Positions 769 through 10,248 of a DNA stretch of 64,000 bases are shown piece by piece. The notes below the pieces were generated by a model. That model made no database searches. It saw only the letters and a program-made list of their open reading frames with translations, and was not told the origin of the DNA. Each line of letters opens with the position of its first letter. Positions within the stretch are counted from its first letter, which is position 1. Both the position numbers and the translations under genes were made by a program. The stretch lies in IMG/VR virus record IMGVR_UViG_3300021478_000001, positions 1 through 64,000 of that record. The stretch is one strand, 5' to 3'. Source of the DNA: a virus.

Positions 769-931
769 GATGATGCTCCTTTTCTAGCTCCAGATTGCGT
801 GCCATAGCACAGATGTGATCACAGCAATTCTGTACTGGTCTATGGATCATGGAGAAAGCTGGATGGTTCCTGGCTAGTTCCGAAATCTTTTCAGCTAAAT
901 CACGCAGGTCTTTGCTTTCTGGGGTGCTCAT
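761..931 (-). CDS. hypothetical protein
   Basis: ATG at 931 overlaps the polymerase stop (ATGA). Confidence 0.5.
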   Translation of the reverse strand: MSTPESKDLRDLAEKISELARNHPAFSMIHRPVQNCCDHICAMARNLELEKEHHHE

Positions 932-2928
932 TCTTTTTTCTCCATCCAACTATCACCTATTTCTGCATCAACTTTCATAGGGAGAGCCAGCGGCACAGCA
1001 ATACGCATGATCTCGGCAATTTCTTGTGCTTGCTTTTCATTTGCGATGCTGAAGCATAACTCGTCATGTATTTGCAGCACCGGGCAATATCCGGCACGCC
1101 ACACGTCACGCATGGCTATCTTGGTCTGGCGCGCAGCGCCACCCTGTATCAAAGCATTCATCGCTTTGTTGGTACGACTGCGATGTAACTTCTGCTGATA
1201 CCATTTATTTTCTGGATCATGCACGCGGCGTTGCGCTTCATTCCAGCGGCAGTCTGCTTGATAGTCTGGATTATTATCCTTTTCGTATTTAGCCCGCAAC
1301 ACATTCCACCAGTCAAACCGTATTCGTGCACCATCCAACAGTACAATATAGCCGCGATCCTCTACTCTTTCCTTGCACTTGGTATAAAGCATCTTGACAA
1401 ATGGCAGACGCTCATCATACTGATTCATAATGCGTGCTGCGGCCTCTTTGCTTTGCCCTATCATCATGGCAAATTTATCAACACCAGCACCATAGGCTTT
1501 CGCGAAGTTGCAATCCTTTGCTGGCTTTCTTTCCAATCCTGTCATCTCGGCAACCATGGCATGAAAGTCAGTATTTGGATCTTCTTGATAGCGTTGCCTT
1601 GCCGCCGCCGCCCCGGATAGCTTTTGCAGATAAGCATAGTGCACCATGAGGCGGAATTCCTGCTGACTGTAATCAACACTCAGCCATCGTTCTCCATCTT
1701 CACCAATGAAGACACTGCGAATTTCTGCCATCTCTGGATCACGATGTGGTATCTGTTGCAATGGTGGATCAGCATAGCTGAATCTATAAGTGCGTGTGCC
1801 GCCACTACTGTCTTCATCATCGCCAGGACTTTCCCCGCGATACTGATTGATAGTTGGATGTATGCGTGAATCCTCTGTGCAGAAATCCATGAGATAACCT
1901 TTAACGAATTTCTCGGCGGCTTCTTCTCGGCTTTTGGCACGGGTAATTAATCGCGGCAACCAATGAGGATGTTTCTTCATCCACTTGGCTTCAAAGCTTC
2001 CACGAGGAGAACCATCGCGGTTAGGCTTATTGGTATATGGATAAGAAATTTGTTCAGCTTGGAAAACTCTTTCTAACCATTTGACACTGCGAATATCATC
2101 AATGCCAGTAGTCTTTCCTATTCTATCTGTCAGATCAACCAAAGCAACTTGACTTTGTTCCTTGAAGCGGTAATACAGTTGTTCACATTTGTCATAATCT
2201 ATGCAGATGCCACGCTGGCGCATGGCATGGACCATGGGAACCAATTCCATTTCTAGATCATATGCGGCTGATAGTTCCTCCTTTATTATGATCGGCCGCA
2301 AAGCATGCGCCAACGCGAGCGTGCCTAGCGCGTCAGCCTCACCATAGGTGCCAACATAACGCGCGGGCATCTGATAAATGTCTTTCTTAGGATCAAATCC
2401 CATTGCTTGCGCATAATCGCGCAGCACCTCCTCTTGTTTTCCCGGCACATCATAGGTCTTGCACAGAGTATCCAATCTGTAATTCAAACCTCCTTCATCA
2501 ATCATGTAGGCCATGCAAGAGGAGTCATCAATTTGTTGAGGCGGCGGCAAGCCTAGATCACTGCTTATCCAGCCTATATCATAGGCAGCATTGTGATAAA
2601 TGAAGCGAACTTTTTTCTGCAACAAGTGCCGCAGCCAACGCCGCACTTGGCCTCTATCAAAGTTGCTGCTCTCTGGATGTGTGATTGGAATATATATTGA
2701 ACGATAATCTTCTTCCTTCCAAGCAATAGCTATGCCACATATATGTCCCGCCTTGGTTGCCCATCCCGGTCCCTTGTTTTCTTTCAATCCTATATCCTGA
2801 GTTTCACAGTCCAGGGCAATTTCTGCAACACTTGTCAGTGCTGGTAGTTCCTTTGGTGCGATCCAAGTGCTGTTAGGCAGCACGAATGAGAATGGTTGCT
2901 GGATGCCACCTACGTTTTTCTTAAGCAT
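928..2928 (-). CDS. polA: family A DNA polymerase with 3'-5' exonuclease
   Basis: ExoI DCETQD, ExoII HNAAYD, ExoIII YGEADA; motif A DYSQQEFR, motif B KDCNFAKAYG, motif C IHDEL. Confidence 0.96.
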   Translation of the reverse strand: MLKKNVGGIQQPFSFVLPNSTWIAPKELPALTSVAEIALDCETQDIGLKENKGPGWATKAGHICGIAIAWKEEDYRSIYIPITHPESSNFDRGQVRRWLRHLLQKKVRFIYHNAAYDIGWISSDLGLPPPQQIDDSSCMAYMIDEGGLNYRLDTLCKTYDVPGKQEEVLRDYAQAMGFDPKKDIYQMPARYVGTYGEADALGTLALAHALRPIIIKEELSAAYDLEMELVPMVHAMRQRGICIDYDKCEQLYYRFKEQSQVALVDLTDRIGKTTGIDDIRSVKWLERVFQAEQISYPYTNKPNRDGSPRGSFEAKWMKKHPHWLPRLITRAKSREEAAEKFVKGYLMDFCTEDSRIHPTINQYRGESPGDDEDSSGGTRTYRFSYADPPLQQIPHRDPEMAEIRSVFIGEDGERWLSVDYSQQEFRLMVHYAYLQKLSGAAAARQRYQEDPNTDFHAMVAEMTGLERKPAKDCNFAKAYGAGVDKFAMMIGQSKEAAARIMNQYDERLPFVKMLYTKCKERVEDRGYIVLLDGARIRFDWWNVLRAKYEKDNNPDYQADCRWNEAQRRVHDPENKWYQQKLHRSRTNKAMNALIQGGAARQTKIAMRDVWRAGYCPVLQIHDELCFSIANEKQAQEIAEIMRIAVPLALPMKVDAEIGDSWMEKKE

Positions 2929-2937
2929 TCATGCCTC

Positions 2938-3423
2938 CTAATGTCGGCAGTCTGGGCAGTCATCTGCATCTGCATAACCATGCGGACATGGGACATTTGG
3001 GGCATTTTTAAGAATTTCATACGCGGGTTGTCCTATCAATTTTCCGCGCTCGATCCCATCTAATCCGGTATCATCGTCATCTTGTTGTGCGTGATGGCCA
3101 CCATCTTCTGCACTCTGTTTTTGACTTAAACGTGCACGATACTCTGCCTCTACCAGCAATAGATAACGACGTAGATCTTGAATTTCTGCAAGAGTTGTGC
3201 CATCTGCACCAGGAGTATCGTCTTCATTTATGGCTGTGAAAACATTGTAGCTGAACACTTCAACCATATTTTCTAAACGATCCCATTTTCTAGCGAGCAT
3301 CATGAAGGCACCGACTCCTCCACGCTTCTTCCAGCTTCCGCGATATGTTCCTTCTTTAATTTCTAGTATTGTCACATCATCAAGAGCTACTTGTTTCAGG
3401 TATTCCATATGCTTCATGTTCAT
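2938..3423 (-). CDS. nucleotide-modification-associated all-alpha NTP pyrophosphohydrolase-like protein (Nmad1/DUF1599-like)
   Basis: YRGSWKKRGGVGAFMMLARKWDRLEN and TLAEIQDLRRYLLL helices; start moved to ATG 3423, which overlaps the TS stop and has a GGAG RBS. Confidence 0.6.
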   Translation of the reverse strand: MNMKHMEYLKQVALDDVTILEIKEGTYRGSWKKRGGVGAFMMLARKWDRLENMVEVFSYNVFTAINEDDTPGADGTTLAEIQDLRRYLLLVEAEYRARLSQKQSAEDGGHHAQQDDDDTGLDGIERGKLIGQPAYEILKNAPNVPCPHGYADADDCPDCRH

Positions 3424-4421
3424 TTCACTCTCCTTTGGATCCACTCTTTGCAAGCCATGCGCCAGTCTGGTGCTGCGATGTCGTCCGCACACAACAATGC
3501 TTCTTTATATTTCTTTTGCTTGAAAGAATGAAACGCCAGTAACGCAGGCGTGGCCACTGTTGAGAACCATAGGTTACGATAGCGACCAACTTTTTGCAGA
3601 TGAAATAATTCCCAATCAGACATGAAAGCATAAAGATCATCATCAATATCTTTAGGTTCAGTAAACATCTGCATGGCTTCGCTACTACCATCACTATAAC
3701 GATCATCTAGCAATAATTCAGGACCGGCTTGTCCCACCAATTTGTTGAACACATCCAAATAAGCGTGAGCATTGTTGCTTATCTGGTACATGACTCCGAC
3801 AGGTAGGTTACAACGTGATGCCAGATATTCTTGCAAGATGCTGAAGTGTACGGCGTTGGCACCATGCGCGCCCCATATCATGTCGTTAGACCGGCAACAT
3901 ACCGTCAGGTCTAATGCGCCATCATTGTTACGCACATAGGCGTGAGTGTTGCATGGTCGATCTTTCCAATCACCTAACAGATCATCACCATAGTCTCTTC
4001 GCACATCCCACATTTGCAACACACACTGCCGATCATGTGGATAATCTGTCAGTTTATCCACTATCACATTCAATTGATCAAAACCGAAAAAAGTACGCCA
4101 GCGACAACCATAAGCACCATGCAGCATGCCATCTTCTTCTGCGAATTGTTTGCTAAAATCCTTGATGAAATAATCCAATGGTCTTGCATCATAAAATCCA
4201 GACAGCATCCACAACGCTTCGAACATATGAAAAAATGGATTGGCATCACGAACAGGACTGAACAGCACCCGTTCCCATGGCCGCTTGGTGACGGTGCACA
4301 CCGGAACTGGACTTACTAATACTCTTCCGTTACGACTATCCTCAAACTCTGCAAAATCATTTAGATATTTGATTGTGACACTGAGTGCTTGGCATACGTT
4401 ACGAACCTCCTGGACGTGCAT
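3420..4421 (-). CDS. thymidylate synthase homologue, probable dUMP hydroxymethylase
   Basis: EALWMLSG, HGAYGCRW, DQL, PCN catalytic Cys, RSNDMIWGAHGAN (Asn at the dUMP-specificity position), NAHAY; neighbours are base-modification genes. Confidence 0.85.
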   Translation of the reverse strand: MHVQEVRNVCQALSVTIKYLNDFAEFEDSRNGRVLVSPVPVCTVTKRPWERVLFSPVRDANPFFHMFEALWMLSGFYDARPLDYFIKDFSKQFAEEDGMLHGAYGCRWRTFFGFDQLNVIVDKLTDYPHDRQCVLQMWDVRRDYGDDLLGDWKDRPCNTHAYVRNNDGALDLTVCCRSNDMIWGAHGANAVHFSILQEYLASRCNLPVGVMYQISNNAHAYLDVFNKLVGQAGPELLLDDRYSDGSSEAMQMFTEPKDIDDDLYAFMSDWELFHLQKVGRYRNLWFSTVATPALLAFHSFKQKKYKEALLCADDIAAPDWRMACKEWIQRRVK

Positions 4422-5061
4422 CGTTTCCTCCCTGTTGCAACCAGTCGCGTATTGTTTGGAAGCTTCCCTGACGGCTGAGCAAGCGGCATTTTACACCTAT
4501 CGTCCGAAGTTTGACAAATTCTTTTTTACTCTTGTCATCCAGTGCGATGATGGTGTCTTGCTTTATGTTGTGGCCGCGGTCGTGTACGGCTTGTATGCAC
4601 TTGGTTATTGGATGGTCTATGAACACAACACGAACATCCAATCTAGCTTGATGCATGATCTTGATACGTTCTAGGCTGTCGTTGAAATTCTTGCCCTCAT
4701 ACAATACATCGGCGCCTAGCTCATGATGCTTGAGAACCAACTCATAAGCATAATTCAAGCTTGGCAATGTGTCAATACCGCCATTCTGGATTTCGTAGTG
4801 GCCGGGAACAAACAAGCGACGTGTGGTATCTCCTTTGGATCTAGGACATTCTGTTTCTTCGCTAGGTTTATAACCTTTTGGGAAGCTGACTGTACAGCTA
4901 CAGTCAGGATAAGAACAACTCCATGAGCATATGTAGCCCATGGGTTTTCGCTTGTTCACTTCCGGATAAGCTATCGCGATGCGCGTTGGATATAGATCCA
5001 TAACCTTGCGCACGATCGTGCTCTTGCCAGAACCATTTGTACCTCTGATATTCACAATCAT
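4399..5061 (-). CDS. P-loop nucleotide kinase (5hmdU-DNA kinase or hmdUMP kinase)
   Basis: N-terminal Walker A IRGTNGSGKST, GGIDT, VLYEG; adjacent to the TS homologue. Confidence 0.8.
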   Translation of the reverse strand: MIVNIRGTNGSGKSTIVRKVMDLYPTRIAIAYPEVNKRKPMGYICSWSCSYPDCSCTVSFPKGYKPSEETECPRSKGDTTRRLFVPGHYEIQNGGIDTLPSLNYAYELVLKHHELGADVLYEGKNFNDSLERIKIMHQARLDVRVVFIDHPITKCIQAVHDRGHNIKQDTIIALDDKSKKEFVKLRTIGVKCRLLSRQGSFQTIRDWLQQGGNDARPGGS

Positions 5062-5343: not shown

Positions 5344-6375
5344 TTATTTCTCCTTCCAAGGTATACGAAGAATCTTTTCTCTAGGGCCAGTTTTCATTGC
5401 TGCCACTATATCAGCTTTAGTTTGTTCATCAGGCTTGTGCAATTTACCTTTACCTAATAAATCTGGGAGCAAGCCTACTCTATAAGATCTATGATTACAT
5501 CCATCACATACCGGGATTGCTTTCCTTTCACCACGAATAAGCATTTCACGGGCAGCCCCTAAAGCATTTCCTTGCCAAATTTCCTCCATAGATTTTTCAT
5601 TTATGTTACCACAATTATATGTTGAATCCCAAGTGTTGCAACAAATCGGAACATTACCGTCCCAGTGTACAACGAATTGCCTGAATGGATGATGACACCG
5701 TTTCCCATCCATACTATGATCTGGTGCAAAAGCTAATCCAGCATAGTTGAAAACTTTACTATGATTACCAATCTTGCTTTCCTTGTCCTGTGCAGCAATA
5801 TCTCGTATTTGTACTAATGTTCTAGTTCCACGTGGCCGACGCATATGGGGATTACCTGCTTTGTCTTGTGGATATTTGTAAAATGTGAAACCTAATGGAT
5901 GTTTTTGTCCTGAAACCAACTCTCCTTTTTCTACAAGAGCGACTATTGTCTTCGGTACAAATTTCACAGTTTCATAATCATCTAGCCCAAGCACACTCAA
6001 TCCAGCTTGAAATAATCCTGTTATGTTCGCTATAGGTCCTGGTTTGCGTAATAGACCGCTTGCATTGGTAAGCATGGTGATGTGTGCTTTAGGAAGATGT
6101 TTGCGAACGATGCCGACCATACCGATGTAGTCTGGATGCATTGTAGGTTCGCCGCGCATGGCAAAACCAACACGGCAATTCCATTTCATTTCAGCTATCT
6201 GTTGCATCACTGTAGTGATGGTTTCTTTAGACATGAACTTATATCCATGTCCTGGTTTATCTTGGATAGCTGGCATAGCACAGAACGGACAATGGATGGA
6301 GCATCCAAGAGTCAGCTCAAGCGTGACGTTGAATGGATCTTCTTGTTTTCGATATGGTCGGCGCTTCATGTCCAT
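5344..6375 (-). CDS. radical SAM protein with SPASM/twitch domain
   Basis: CSIHCPFC (CxxxCxxC), RGEPTMHP, LTNA; C-terminal CHHPF..DGNVPICC..CGNI..CDGC. Confidence 0.92.
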   Translation of the reverse strand: MDMKRRPYRKQEDPFNVTLELTLGCSIHCPFCAMPAIQDKPGHGYKFMSKETITTVMQQIAEMKWNCRVGFAMRGEPTMHPDYIGMVGIVRKHLPKAHITMLTNASGLLRKPGPIANITGLFQAGLSVLGLDDYETVKFVPKTIVALVEKGELVSGQKHPLGFTFYKYPQDKAGNPHMRRPRGTRTLVQIRDIAAQDKESKIGNHSKVFNYAGLAFAPDHSMDGKRCHHPFRQFVVHWDGNVPICCNTWDSTYNCGNINEKSMEEIWQGNALGAAREMLIRGERKAIPVCDGCNHRSYRVGLLPDLLGKGKLHKPDEQTKADIVAAMKTGPREKILRIPWKEK

Positions 6376-6383
6376 GGTTCCTT

Positions 6384-6944
6384 TCAGTAAGGTATGTCTT
6401 CAGTGGTTCTGTCCATAATAAACTTTTGTTTTGTTAAGTCAATAGTGAGTCGCATCACTTTGGCTTGATACATGGCGTTGAGAAGAGTTTGCATCTTAGA
6501 ATTTTGGAGATTGGCGTCCAAGTATTCACCAAGTAGAGTGTCTGGAGCATCATTGCGTACAATGTCTACTTCATATATGCTAGCATTAGAATTAATTGGT
6601 TCTTCATCTGATGTGGATCCATATTCAATAAAATTTCCTTCAATAGCATCCCAAGAAACTAAAACATAGTCAGCATCATCATGTGGTCGAATACCATGAT
6701 CTACTAATTCGGAGGCTTTATCTATAGGAATTAGTTTGTATTTGTTTTGTATTTGAAACATCACATGAGTTAGCTTTTCTTTAATCGCTTGTGCAAAAGA
6801 CTCAATGTTGACTGCTACGTTCATACTATAGATTTTAGAGATACAGTGTAATGCTGTTCCTTCTATTGTTTTATCTGGTTTGAAACAGATAATTTTACCA
6901 TGTCTACCAATCTTGCCGTTTGGTCTATAGAATCCCATTGACAT
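6384..6944 (-). CDS. hypothetical protein within the modification cluster
   Basis: 186-aa AT-rich ORF with GGAG RBS, no recognisable motif, ends EDIPY. Confidence 0.65.
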   Translation of the reverse strand: MSMGFYRPNGKIGRHGKIICFKPDKTIEGTALHCISKIYSMNVAVNIESFAQAIKEKLTHVMFQIQNKYKLIPIDKASELVDHGIRPHDDADYVLVSWDAIEGNFIEYGSTSDEEPINSNASIYEVDIVRNDAPDTLLGEYLDANLQNSKMQTLLNAMYQAKVMRLTIDLTKQKFIMDRTTEDIPY

Positions 6945-6993: not shown

Positions 6994-7938
6994 TTACATA
7001 GCACCCTCCAACTGTTTGTATGCTGCCTTGATCTTGCCGTGCAACCCATCACGCTCGGCCAAGGCGGTATTATACCACAACATCTGTTGCTCTTTCTTAA
7101 TCTTGCTGCGTTCCTCCAACATACGCGCCGCATGCACTGCATTGGACACCAGAAACTTTTCTGGATTGTATCCGGCGCGGCGCAACGTCATGCCTGCTTC
7201 TTCTTCAAACACCATGGGCAGGCCCGCACTCAGCATTTCGTAGAACCTGTTTGGTGGTGAATGGTATTCGTTGTGTGATTTGCGATCCTCCAAATAAAGA
7301 CCGAGGCCACGTTCACTTAGCCATTTGAGCAAGTCATCAGCAATACCTATGGCTTTGATTTTTTCATTGGCATAAGATTCAAATTTCTTGCTCGGGCTTG
7401 ATATCGTGATATTGCATCTTGGATCTTTGAAGAATTTGTCAAATGCCTTGATACGACCAACGCGATAACTGCCATAGTAGGCTATATCGTTCTCATGCAT
7501 GTTGCTAGGCAACGGCTTGGCCAGCATGCTCAGGCAGTTCCAGTTGATATAGGTGCTGAGTGGTGTTGCTTTGCTTTCCTTTTCACATGTCGTCCAGAAT
7601 TCTAAGTGCGACTTGCCCATCTTGCGCCGCGCCACGAACGCTTGACGGAACGGTGATTTTGCATCTCCATTGTTGATAGGAGGAACAATGGTGTAGTCTT
7701 GCTGGATCCAGACGATACGATTGGCTCCCAGGATTGCTAGACTTAGTTCTTTCAAATGTTTGCAAAAACCATAGGCACCATTGACTATGAACAAGAGGTC
7801 CAAGTTGGTGCAGTCAGCAATTTGGTCATCCCAGATCAACGGTTTCTGCAACTCATTAGACAAGAACCTTGCGACTTTCGTGCTAGCCACCATTGAGCGC
7901 TCAGTGGCCGGGATGAAGCTGAAGATCACTGTTTTCAT
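6994..7938 (-). CDS. T4 DNA beta-glucosyltransferase-like GT-B enzyme
   Basis: DLLFIVN..F..LAILGA, WIQQD, DIAYYGSYRVGR, LYLED, NRFYEMLSAGLPMVFEEE, FLVSN parallel my recollection of T4 BGT segments (DRLIVVN..LAILSA, FTD, DVIYGGSFRSG, LRVWETMASDAVMLIDEE, FYVNN). Confidence 0.75.
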   Translation of the reverse strand: MKTVIFSFIPATERSMVASTKVARFLSNELQKPLIWDDQIADCTNLDLLFIVNGAYGFCKHLKELSLAILGANRIVWIQQDYTIVPPINNGDAKSPFRQAFVARRKMGKSHLEFWTTCEKESKATPLSTYINWNCLSMLAKPLPSNMHENDIAYYGSYRVGRIKAFDKFFKDPRCNITISSPSKKFESYANEKIKAIGIADDLLKWLSERGLGLYLEDRKSHNEYHSPPNRFYEMLSAGLPMVFEEEAGMTLRRAGYNPEKFLVSNAVHAARMLEERSKIKKEQQMLWYNTALAERDGLHGKIKAAYKQLEGAM

Positions 7939-8270
7939 GCTGATTGGCCTTTCTTCATTTCTGCAATTGTAGCTGGATCATCTTTACGATGAAGGCCGCG
8001 GTCTGGATCACCAGCACCATGCCGAACACGGTAGGTGTCGAACTCATCGGCTAGTGCCATGAGTCGTATACAGAACATGGCATTGTATCCTAAGCCTATA
8101 CCAGCTTGCGCATAGGCCCGGAGTGCAGCTGGTGCCGCAGGATCACGTGCGCCTAGCACAAAGCTTGGCCACTCGACGACAGTGCCATCGCGACGCTTGA
8201 CTAGATACTTGCCTTCCGGCGTTGCTGGATTATCTCTGATTAGAGCAGTCAATGTTGGTTTCTCTTTCAT
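7935..8270 (-). CDS. conserved-type small phage protein (FVLGARDPAAPAALRAYA motif)
   Basis: GGAGG RBS before ATG 8270; stop overlaps the GT start. Confidence 0.6.
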   Translation of the reverse strand: MKEKPTLTALIRDNPATPEGKYLVKRRDGTVVEWPSFVLGARDPAAPAALRAYAQAGIGLGYNAMFCIRLMALADEFDTYRVRHGAGDPDRGLHRKDDPATIAEMKKGQSA

Positions 8271-8442
8271 TTCTTCCTCCTTTAGCACGTCGCCTACGTC
8301 TAGCTAAATTTTCACGCTCCCTCACACTCACCCGGTAGCGTATGTCTGCCTCGATAGCGCGAATTTCCGCGCATTCAAAGCAATACTTTCGAAACCTGAT
8401 GCGCTCTATTGGTGCGGCACACCGTTCACATTCACCTTTCAT
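8230..8442 (-). CDS. small Zn-finger, Arg-rich protein
   Basis: CERC...CFEC; ATG overlaps the upstream stop. Confidence 0.5.
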   Translation of the reverse strand: MKGECERCAAPIERIRFRKYCFECAEIRAIEADIRYRVSVRERENLARRRRRAKGGRNERETNIDCSNQR

Positions 8443-9359
8443 GTTGCATCTTCCCATCGGTACTTCTGTTTTGGCATCTTATCTTCGAAGTTGGCTTGAT
8501 GCCATTTCGAGTATTCGCACAAGCAATTTTGAATATCTTGGGCATGTGGTTGTGGCATCTGCTCGGCCTTGAACATCGGCAATAGTTTTTCTCGCAGCCT
8601 CCCTAGTTCTAGGCGGAATTCATCCTCTTTCCAAACATCCTTGCGATTGCGGCCGCAAACATAATTTAATCCTCTTTTTGAACCGGGTCCACTGGCAGCA
8701 AACGTATGCCAGTCTGATGCTTGACGAAGAGGCTCGTGGTATTTTATATCAGCAATCACTTGTGCGGTCATGAAGCTGCCAAATCCTTGCATGCTGCCAA
8801 GCAATATGTGAAATGAGTTGAGTGTGTCACCTGCCTTTGGTCGCAGTCTTTCTCGTGCTTTCCACAATGGTTCAATCACTTCATGTGCTAGATAAGCAAC
8901 TTTTGGAATATGAAAAGAGTCTTTTGTTAAATAATCCATGTTATCAACACTCGTTCCGGCAGTTGATACCATGTAGGCACCATTAAAGATCTTGCCGCCA
9001 GTCTTATAATAGCGACCAAGCAATCGTAGAAAAGTTGTTTTGTTGAACGGCACTGGATAGCCAACTATTTCTAAACTTTCAGGTAGATTGAGTATACGGG
9101 CAACGCACATGGCGAACCATAGTTCCGGATCATTGCTGTGCGGATTGCGCCAATTTTCTCTGATCCAAACAGTAACCTTGTCATCTTCGCGGTAGATGTT
9201 GCAGAAGCGATAACCACTAAGAATAGGATCATTCGTCCATGGTGGTCTATCACCGGCTTGGCGGCGCATGTAAATCATGTATCGTTCATGAGCGAACGCG
9301 AATATACGTTCTACTGGATCCTTGATGTTTTTGATCATACGCTCTTTAGGATCTTTCAT
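8439..9359 (-). CDS. aGPT-PPlase clade 1 / 5hmdU DNA kinase helical-domain protein (HhH glycosylase-like fold)
   Basis: WTNDPILSGYRFCNIYREDDKVT, GAYMV, GFGSFMTAQVIAD, GPGSKRGL, DIQNCLCEYSK; GGAGG RBS before ATG 9359. Confidence 0.8.
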   Translation of the reverse strand: MKDPKERMIKNIKDPVERIFAFAHERYMIYMRRQAGDRPPWTNDPILSGYRFCNIYREDDKVTVWIRENWRNPHSNDPELWFAMCVARILNLPESLEIVGYPVPFNKTTFLRLLGRYYKTGGKIFNGAYMVSTAGTSVDNMDYLTKDSFHIPKVAYLAHEVIEPLWKARERLRPKAGDTLNSFHILLGSMQGFGSFMTAQVIADIKYHEPLRQASDWHTFAASGPGSKRGLNYVCGRNRKDVWKEDEFRLELGRLREKLLPMFKAEQMPQPHAQDIQNCLCEYSKWHQANFEDKMPKQKYRWEDAT

Positions 9360-9588
9360 GTTTGTGTTCCTCCTCGACGATTTCTCCAGTTTCTCTATCA
9401 AACTCATAAGCTACACCTTGCACTATATCACCCGCTACTAACGGCTTGCCTTTGCGCTTTAGTTCTATGACTCGTACATCATTGATCGTGACAGGACCGG
9501 TGTTGGTTTCTTTCGCAACGAAACCAATCCAATTTGTACGCATCCCTTCGATGATAGTATCTAGATCATTTTTGTCTTTCGACATCAT
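9346..9588 (-). CDS. hypothetical protein
   Basis: Coupled ORF in the operon. Confidence 0.5.
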   Translation of the reverse strand: MMSKDKNDLDTIIEGMRTNWIGFVAKETNTGPVTINDVRVIELKRKGKPLVAGDIVQGVAYEFDRETGEIVEEEHKHERS

Positions 9589-10094
9589 GGTGCGCCCCAT
9601 CGTGATAGATATTTGAACACAGCCATGCCATCCTCCGATGACAGACCTAACTTTTCCAGCGCGGCAAACGTGTCTGCTATGATAGGATGAGCGAACTGGT
9701 TTCCCATCAATAGTTCCACGCGGCCGAATTCATGCATGTCTATCAGGTCGCATGCCTTGGCGCGCAGCTTTTCTTGGCCAGAAATATCAGGAAACACTCC
9801 TCCCATATTCTTGACAGCTTCTGTTTCTAGTGTGTTTATCGTATGCTTCAGGATGTCATTGTTAGCTTTGACTGGGAATGGGAGATCACCAGTCACCAAT
9901 TCACCGGCGTCGTGCCAGATAAAGTAAGTAGTAATGTAGGCGTTCGGTGGTCCCCAGATTTCATCCCAGATACGCAAGCATTGCCAAGTGTGTTCACCTA
10001 CAGTTTGACGTTGATGCGTCATCCAAGTGTGGTAACGCATAACGCTTCCGGCATAGCGAGGATTGTGCAGCACATCGTTGCGTTTCAAGTTCAT
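9585..10094 (-). CDS. HD-domain phosphohydrolase (YfbR-like deoxynucleotidase)
   Basis: VMRYHT, QTVGEH, WHDAGELVTGDLPFPVK, KACDLID. Confidence 0.88.
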   Translation of the reverse strand: MNLKRNDVLHNPRYAGSVMRYHTWMTHQRQTVGEHTWQCLRIWDEIWGPPNAYITTYFIWHDAGELVTGDLPFPVKANNDILKHTINTLETEAVKNMGGVFPDISGQEKLRAKACDLIDMHEFGRVELLMGNQFAHPIIADTFAALEKLGLSSEDGMAVFKYLSRWGAP

Positions 10095-10104
10095 ATGGGC
10101 GCCT

Positions 10105-10248
10105 CTACATTTTATGAGATGCAACAGCAACAATGCAACCAGCTAGTCCCAGCGAAACGAAAACAGCCCAAGCGTCTTGCCACCAGAACCAAAGAAATAG
10201 CAAGCAGATGCCAAGTCCAAAATGGAATAAGCCAAGAAATAATTTCAC
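10105..10248 (-). CDS. 47-aa membrane peptide (absent from ORF track)
   Basis: GAGG RBS, GTG start, MKLFLGLFHFGLGICLLFLWFWWQDAWAVFVSLGLAGCIVAVASHKM; fills the intergenic gap. Confidence 0.55.
   Translation of the reverse strand: MKLFLGLFHFGLGICLLFLWFWWQDAWAVFVSLGLAGCIVAVASHKM

Follow-up and report, generated by a model that had tools for sequence, protein, structure and literature searches.

A phage glycosyltransferase resembling T4 beta-glucosyltransferase and paired with a uracil-type hydroxymethylase may glycosylate 5-hydroxymethyluracil in DNA

The gene at positions 6994–7938 of the window, which is the whole stretch of 64,000 nucleotides of viral DNA analysed here (IMG/VR record IMGVR_UViG_3300021478_000001), almost certainly encodes a glycosyltransferase (GT) of the GT-B type that resembles beta-glucosyltransferase (BGT) of phage T4, and we consider it likely that this enzyme works on DNA within a pathway based on 5-hydroxymethyluracil (5hmU). 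On balance we favour the reading that the enzyme, as a distant sister of BGT, is a DNA glycosyltransferase of the GT-B type that works with inversion and attaches a sugar to 5hmU in DNA. The evidence that bears on this directly is the fold of the protein and its remote homology to BGT, the conserved residues, the uracil-type hydroxymethylase encoded nearby, the linkage of these genes in other phages and the absence of the amino-acid:DNA transferase PF18724.

6994–7938, minus strand: BGT-like GT-B glycosyltransferase P0001, 314 aa (structural model, PDB fold, hhalign, conserved residues)

Fold and remote homology to T4 BGT

The 314-residue protein has no match in Pfam (E up to 0.1), PHROGs, NCBIfam or the sequences of the PDB, where the single sequence and a profile of 29 sequences matched ribosomal protein eL27 alone, hits that we rejected as chance. 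In direct comparison with T4 BGT, BLASTP gave a non-significant E of 0.15, and the 29-sequence profile reached a probability of only 22.9% against the single BGT sequence. It took larger profiles on both sides to detect the homology. With 255 members of the GT family set against 42 BGT homologues, all of them carrying PF09198, hhalign gave a probability of 97.7% (E 2.3e-12, 275 columns) in local mode and of 99% in global mode, and the register was the same in a simple MAFFT alignment of ten sequences drawn from the two families.

The structural comparison points in the same direction. An AlphaFold2 model built on 29 homologues has a mean pLDDT of 93.9 and a pTM of 0.89, and in a Foldseek search of the PDB five entries of T4 BGT came out on top (E 6.5e-10 to 8e-9, TM 0.66–0.73, 15% identity). 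VIA-align superimposes the model on BGT with Z 20.2–20.9 and rmsd 3.7–4.0 over 293–299 residues, and ranks below it SenB (Z 17.7), PimA (17.3) and the alpha-glucosyltransferase (AGT) of T4 (16.8). An earlier note on this DNA, made from its letters, had read the protein by eye as following T4 BGT along its length and had proposed structure prediction and superposition as a check; model, profile–profile comparison and MAFFT alignment all agree with that reading, BGT being the best among solved structures (Z 20.9 versus 17.7).

The curated PF09198 model, which describes the T4 BGT family, is not matched by the phage protein, so that it is not a member of PF09198 as curated, and we treat it as a sister family of BGT (which we take to be CAZy family GT63) within GT-B. 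The two enzymes (PDB 1BGT, 1C3J, 1J39 and 1QKJ for BGT) share a two-domain GT-B fold and similar size, and both genes lie beside a hydroxymethylase of the thymidylate synthase (TS) family in a phage DNA-metabolism operon, whereas the protein described here is only about 15% identical and 37 residues shorter.

Conserved catalytic and UDP-binding residues

The shared register places the following positions opposite each other (numbering of the T4 BGT residues was verified).

WIQQD81: LFTD100 of T4 BGT, position of the catalytic base
GS157-Y-R159-V-G-R162: GS189-F-R191-S-G-Q-R195 of T4 BGT
D218: D258 of T4 BGT
R231-F-Y-E234: R269-V-W-E272 of T4 BGT

The Asp that had been noticed by eye at the position of the catalytic base is indeed D81, which falls on D100 of BGT in both hhalign and MAFFT and is Asp in 254 of the 255 family members. 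The GS(Y/F)RxG and RxxE motifs, noticed at the same time and read as binding the UDP-sugar, also align with their BGT counterparts, and their charged residues are kept in 254–255 of 255 members (R159, R162 and E234 in all of them, R231 in 254), while D218 is found in 253. In BGT the residues Ser189, Arg191 and Arg195 together with Arg269 and Glu272 bind UDP. We propose that D81 is the catalytic base and that R159, R162, R231 and E234 are ligands of the UDP phosphates and ribose. An invariant catalytic Asp that serves as general base would fit a hydroxyl acceptor, as in BGT.

A uracil-type hydroxymethylase as partner

The GT gene stands in a string of genes on the same strand, made up of the following open reading frames (ORFs) besides the GT itself.

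928–2928, minus strand: family A DNA polymerase at the end of the co-oriented string (31–37% identity to phage PolA)
2938–3492, minus strand: 184-aa ORF between the hydroxymethylase and polA, conserved in related clusters (homologues in 11 loci)
3420–4421, minus strand: TS homologue, read as dUMP hydroxymethylase (PF00303, E 5.6e-19; phrog_5131, E 1e-91)
4399–5061, minus strand: putative P-loop kinase, diverged relative of the 5-hmdU DNA kinase (PF18748, E 0.0089)
5344–6375, minus strand: radical SAM enzyme with an auxiliary-cluster (SPASM/twitch) domain, BtrN-like (PF04055 and PF13186)
6384–6944, minus strand: 186-aa ORF between the GT and the radical SAM gene, orphan, lineage-specific
7935–8288, minus strand: 117-aa ORF, translationally coupled to the GT through an ATGA overlap (a weak partial PHROG match alone)
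8439–9407, minus strand: PF18723 protein (Pfam 'HMUDK_hel'; paralogue of the aGPT-Pplase type represented by M6 gp55), 322 aa (PF18723, E 8.4e-40)
9585–10133, minus strand: HD-domain YfbR-like 5'-deoxynucleotidase (PF12917, E 1e-8; phrog_6047, E 6e-26)

Which base, then, would such a cluster modify? The TS homologue shares 46% of its residues with the Yuavirus enzyme that carries the annotation 'deoxyuridylate hydroxymethyltransferase', and 29% with an SPO1-like enzyme. At the position of Asp179 of T4 gp42 (RSNDVVFGFRND) it has Asn (RSNDMIWGAHGAN), as do the dUMP enzymes (RSND...GAN). The Asn, and with it the pairing with a uracil rather than a cytosine hydroxymethylase, had been pointed out in the earlier note, and it is borne out both by the identity to the Yuavirus dUMP enzyme and by the family as a whole: every GT-linked locus with a TS homologue has it (27 of 27 seen), and so does the cultured phage EP_H11. 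The GT family is thus strictly tied to hydroxymethylases of the uracil type, where T4 BGT is partnered with a cytosine-type enzyme.

It could be argued that an enzyme with the fold, the catalytic residues and the UDP-binding residues of BGT should simply glucosylate 5-hydroxymethylcytosine (5hmC), as T4 BGT does. We regard this as very improbable. A linked Asp-type dCMP hydroxymethylase is what would be expected of a BGT, as in T4 gp42, and the only TS-family gene of this cluster has the uracil-type Asn instead, as have those of the 27 other loci and of EP_H11, with the 46% identity to the Yuavirus dUMP hydroxymethylase adding to the argument. The cluster also contains families of the 5hmU pathway (PF18723 and the PF18748-like kinase), and a scan of 40 further ORFs of the genome showed neither cytosine methyltransferase nor dioxygenase families.

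Linkage in other phages and a predicted separate branch of thymidine hypermodification

The GT family is large, with 345 homologues in a collection clustered at 90% and 623 clusters at 50% identity in a profile search of 1.84 billion representatives. None of the homologues found carries a name or a Pfam domain, some members show weak Glyco_trans_1_2 matches, and we found no paper that characterises the family. In IMG/VR it occurs in 34 loci, to which EP_H11 can be added, and wherever the flank is long enough the GT gene has a TS homologue and a PF18723 gene as neighbours. The nearly constant company of the PF18723 protein, which T4 lacks, and the frequent presence of a BtrN-like radical SAM gene after the GT are further differences from T4 BGT. 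Two cultured E. coli phages, EP_H11 (OP688485) and IME392 (vB_EcoM_IME392, MH719082), have a GT homologue with 28% identity over 90% of the length; in EP_H11 its gene is followed directly by that of PF18723, after which come the genes of a P-loop protein, of the TS homologue and of the HD nucleotidase. Both phages are predicted to be T-modified by published genome analyses (PMC13697223). A search for longer, fused relatives of the GT found none and is weak evidence by itself; a single, divergent protein, P0212 (634 aa), has a GT fused with a PF18723 domain. As a separate observation, P0218 (784 aa) extends for about 450 residues beyond the GT and ends in a second R-L-Y-E-A-L-x-A-G motif, so that the extension may be a second GT domain, which would suggest di-glycosylation.

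These data also bear on whether DNA is the acceptor at all. Most GT-B enzymes act on proteins, polymers of the cell envelope or small molecules, and the place of this one in the cluster could be incidental: the structural matches that follow BGT are non-DNA GT-B enzymes (SenB, PimA, BshA, Gtf3/GtfC), and the weak Glyco_trans_1_2 matches of some members would agree with that. Nevertheless, we find such an activity improbable. A DNA glycosyltransferase is the best match by a clear margin, with T4 AGT also high in the list; the linkage to the hydroxymethylase and PF18723 persists across very different phages, including an E. coli myovirus; a fusion with the DNA-base-flipping PF18723 domain exists; and the gene is translationally coupled within an operon for nucleotide metabolism and DNA modification, its ATG overlapping the stop codon of the upstream ORF 7935–8288 by 4 bases (ATGA).

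How does the cluster compare with the known pathways in which 5hmU is modified after replication, those of M6, PaMx11, ViI, PhiW-14 and SP10 (PMC5889632, PMC8989533, PMC11472151)? It shares with them the dUMP hydroxymethylase, the P-loop kinase, PF18723 and the HD 5'-deoxynucleotidase, in an order next to polA that is also seen in Yuavirus (PF18724, PLP (pyridoxal phosphate) enzyme, radical SAM enzyme of the spore photoproduct lyase (SPL) type, PF18748 kinase, PF18723, Nmad5, hydroxymethylase, HD nucleotidase, polA). In contrast to them, the window cluster lacks PF18724, the PLP decarboxylase, the SPL-like radical SAM enzyme and Nmad5, and has instead the BGT-like GT and a BtrN-like radical SAM enzyme. 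The amino-acid:DNA transferase PF18724 was found neither in the complete genome of the window (protein and family searches, E up to 1) nor in nine other GT-bearing genomes (CheckV estimate 94–100% complete) or EP_H11, while the Yuavirus control gave 2.3e-48, and homologues of the PLP enzyme, the SPL-like radical SAM enzyme and Nmad5 are missing from all the GT loci. Therefore the GT clusters form a separate branch of thymidine hypermodification, in which the glycosyltransferase occupies the place of the amino-acid machinery of the known branches and amino-acid adducts of the M6/ViI type are unavailable as acceptors. Since this family goes with hydroxymethylases of the uracil type, to the exclusion of the amino-acid transferase that all characterised thymidine pathways have, we predict a third, sugar-based branch. 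A treatment of T-hypermodification genes does not mention glycosyltransferases (PMC8989533), and a preprint that surveyed GTs near TS homologues and dioxygenases merely suggested 5hmU as the target of some systems (10.1101/2023.12.21.572611).

The P-loop kinase, the PF18723 protein and the nature of the acceptor

The earlier note had spoken of 5hmU-kinase-type genes in the cluster. This is clearly so for PF18723 (E 8e-40), but the P-loop protein at 4399–5061 is only weakly similar to 5-HMUDK: its PF18748 match (E 0.0089) has 16 bits against a cut-off of 27 bits, it is 24% identical to the Yuavirus 5-HMUDK (E 2e-4), and a genome-wide search with the PF18748 family gives nothing above the cut-off. 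The candidate substrates of this putative kinase are 5hmU in DNA, the attached sugar and 5-hydroxymethyl-dUMP (hmdUMP). Homologues are found in or beside many GT loci, and in three of them a P-loop ORF lies directly upstream of the GT and overlaps it (L019 9384–10004, L025 110–724 and L033 9303–9926); all three share the IRGTNGSGKS Walker motif with the window kinase, and tblastn (E 1e-4) had missed them. Sequence searches detected no P-loop kinase in seven GT loci, four of which come from genomes estimated to be 94–100% complete. We regard the kinase as frequent but, as far as these searches can tell, not obligatory, and in the genomes that lack it 5hmU itself would be the only evident hydroxyl.

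The PF18723 protein at 8439–9407 is 31–33% identical to the gp55-type protein of Yuavirus and syntenic with its gene. Its model (pLDDT 88.5) has a helix-hairpin-helix (HhH) DNA-glycosylase-like fold, with Z 10.7 to both archaeal Ogg and the PaMx11 5-PmdU glycinyltransferase PUGT and 10.0 to DUF2419, values that are middling for helical proteins. Residues Cys297-Glu298 are invariant in 19 homologues. A comparison in hhalign with the Yuavirus amino-acid:DNA transferase (AADT) is not significant (probability 0.6%), with a stretch of 16 residues that puts C297 on Cys247. PUGT uses Cys247 as the nucleophile in its attack on the pyrimidine (PMC11472151). PF18723 may thus be an enzyme and not a passive helical domain. 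An initial assignment of this 322-aa neighbour as an amino-acid:DNA transferase was rejected, as the Yuavirus cluster and current Pfam models show it to be PF18723.

There is then another way in which these genes might work together. The kinase would phosphorylate 5hmU, PF18723 as a Cys-dependent, PUGT-like enzyme would exchange the phosphate for another nucleophile, and the GT would glycosylate the adduct or the phosphate, with a linker-sugar or a sugar-phosphate base of the SP-15/YerA41/Carin-5 kind as the product. The presence of the kinase and PF18723 in one operon with the GT, the three loci with the kinase-type ORF directly upstream of it, the PUGT-like fold (Z 10.7) and the invariant Cys297-Glu298, with C297 on AADT Cys247 in the non-significant stretch, are all consistent with this scheme. 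Glycosylated, phosphate-containing thymidine hypermodifications are known, and the polymerases of EP_H11 and IME392 are of the YerA41 type (PMC12686479, PMC13697223). Nonetheless, in the only reconstituted pathway M6 gp54 and gp51 are sufficient, and gp55, the protein of the PF18723 type, has no known activity and is dispensable (PMC8989533). SP-15, YerA41 and Carin-5 do have sugars on a thymine-derived base and polymerases of the group found in EP_H11 and IME392, but there the sugars are attached through a pentyl-type linker with phosphate, and these phages encode multi-gene sugar-nucleotide blocks (PMC12686479, PMC13697223). Neither such blocks nor a gene for the linker donor were recognised among the 40 further ORFs. 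Some GT-bearing genomes that are estimated to be complete or nearly complete have no detectable kinase, and a phosphate acceptor would need no invariant general base such as D81. We therefore find a sugar-phosphate variant, which the earlier note had offered beside base J, less likely, given the invariant catalytic base and the members without a detectable kinase. The scheme as a whole appears to us unlikely, if still a serious contender, mainly because of the lead that Cys297 gives on catalysis by PF18723.

The radical SAM neighbour and the sugar donor

The radical SAM enzyme at 5344–6375 bears no relation to the SPL-like isomerase found in M6. Among solved structures the closest relative is BtrN (PDB 4M7S, 4M7T), matched with E 1.9e-11 by the single sequence and 6e-21 by a 7-sequence profile (next is anSME, 7e-7) over both the core and the auxiliary-cluster region. 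In butirosin biosynthesis BtrN, a radical SAM dehydrogenase, oxidises a hydroxyl group of 2-deoxy-scyllo-inosamine. The phage enzyme differs in being about 90 residues longer and in its proposed substrate, a sugar on DNA. In about 15 loci its gene comes immediately after that of the GT, and the enzyme probably tailors the DNA-linked sugar, as its resemblance to BtrN suggests; with such a neighbour the final base is probably not plain glucosyl-hmU. As for the donor, no sugar-nucleotide or second GT family was seen among the 40 further ORFs, and so we infer that it is probably an abundant host UDP-sugar, as in T4.

Proposed mechanism

In the mechanism that we propose, the Asn-type TS homologue would make hmdUMP, and 5hmU would be incorporated in place of thymine. 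After replication the GT would move a hexose from a host UDP-sugar onto the hydroxymethyl oxygen of 5hmU with inversion, D81 acting as general base while R159, R162, R231 and E234 hold the UDP. An alpha-linked donor would thus give beta-glycosyl-5hmU, which is base J if the sugar is glucose, and the BtrN-like radical SAM enzyme would probably then oxidise a hydroxyl of the attached sugar. PF18723 could act at these sites as an HhH-type partner that flips the base. That the acceptor is 5hmU itself, rather than something built on it, we hold to be somewhat better than an even bet.

Several considerations weigh against this mechanism. The loop on the donor side, ahead of R231 and the R-x-x-E motif (SH..HSP.N), is unlike that of BGT, so that the sugar may not be glucose. 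As judged from the sequences, the similarity of the GT to BGT lies below every curated family threshold. The kinase and PF18723 with its invariant Cys-Glu could create a different acceptor first, and sequence searches can miss a divergent kinase, which limits the weight of its apparent absence from some loci. A PIG-L-family deacetylase is encoded two genes upstream of the EP_H11 GT and hints at GlcNAc (N-acetylglucosamine) or an amino sugar on DNA in that lineage, so the sugar may differ between lineages. Finally, the evidence that we bring forward consists of genes, their linkage and a predicted fold. In EP_H11, the stretch just upstream of the GT (L001 5832–8953) contains the genes of a BCCT-family transporter, the PIG-L-family protein (GlcNAc de-N-acetylase type) and a 344-aa protein.

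The earlier note had raised the possibility of a phage base J. The type of enzyme, the Asn-type partner across the family and the 5hmU-type cluster all stand, while base J as the product would follow only if the donor were glucose and no tailoring took place; that it is exactly base J we consider rather doubtful. In kinetoplastids the JBP1/2 thymidine hydroxylases and JGT also lead to a beta-glycosylated 5-hydroxymethyluracil, but there 5hmU is made by a dioxygenase on DNA, and not before replication by a TS homologue. The fold differs as well: JGT has been reported as a structural match of phage glycosyltransferases with a GT-A fold (preprint 10.1101/2023.12.21.572611), whereas our model is a GT-B enzyme with two Rossmann domains. 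Therefore any likeness between the two would be convergent.

Phage DNA glycosylation is established for cytosine-derived bases, in T-even and RB69-type phages and as the 5hmC glycans of dioxygenase-encoding phages. To our knowledge, kinetoplastids are the only known source of glycosylated 5hmU as such, which has not yet been shown chemically in any phage. If confirmed, our proposal would add a new natural DNA base or place base J outside eukaryotes, help to explain the resistance of such phages to restriction and sequencing, and provide an enzyme for tagging 5hmU together with a testable partner for the gp55-type PF18723 proteins. We tentatively extend it to the possibility that widespread phages, among them EP_H11 and IME392, replace T with beta-glycosyl-5hmU and that in the lineage described here the BtrN-like enzyme oxidises the DNA-bound sugar. 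Among known radical SAM enzymes this one would be the first to tailor a DNA-linked sugar, giving a keto- or amino-sugar base not yet described, and base J or a close derivative would be reached by a BGT-like GT-B enzyme, convergently with kinetoplastids. With a family member present in two cultured E. coli phages, the prediction is open to routine nucleoside liquid chromatography–mass spectrometry.

Genome context and other observations

The window covers the first 64 kb of a viral contig in IMG/VR that is 86,933 bp long and has direct terminal repeats; CheckV estimates the contig to be complete. A megablast comparison of 20 kb of the window with 50,697 deposited phage records gave no match and no close relative. 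Its PolA is 31–37% identical to those of Pelagibacter HTVC023P-type, Vibrio VpKK5, Pseudanabaena Pan1, Bordetella, Yuavirus-like and Pseudomonas aeruginosa phages. Near-identical sequence, covering part or the whole of the stretch, occurs in six soil-metagenome runs, one of which may be the source, and no RNA run is listed among the sequencing runs with this sequence.

The HD-domain 5'-deoxynucleotidase at 9585–10133 is syntenic with the Yuavirus 5'-deoxynucleotidase and presumably shapes the deoxynucleoside monophosphate pool. The 184-aa ORF at 2938–3492 has no Pfam or NCBIfam match, and its homologues in 11 loci, besides the near-identical contig L005, are 35–62% identical. The 186-aa ORF at 6384–6944 has neither a family match (Pfam, PHROGs, NCBIfam) nor a usable atlas match. 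It flanks the GT together with the other orphan, 7935–8288, and both are seen elsewhere only in L005; in related phages the radical SAM gene follows the GT directly, with no 186-aa ORF between them. Outside the window, at 81310–81573 of the contig (G000:C1, minus strand), a SAM-dependent methyltransferase (PF13649, E 2e-16) is encoded in the early region on the strand of the modification operon.

T4-like Straboviridae (Cronobacter S13, LPCS28, Citrobacter Ci1) encode a 283-aa hypothetical protein that is 24–27% identical to the C-terminal half of the GT family. In Cronobacter phage S13 (L002 4665–5516) its gene lies between uvsY and uvsW, and the protein, which may represent an uncharacterised DNA glycosyltransferase of these T4-like phages, has Glu at the position of the catalytic Asp.

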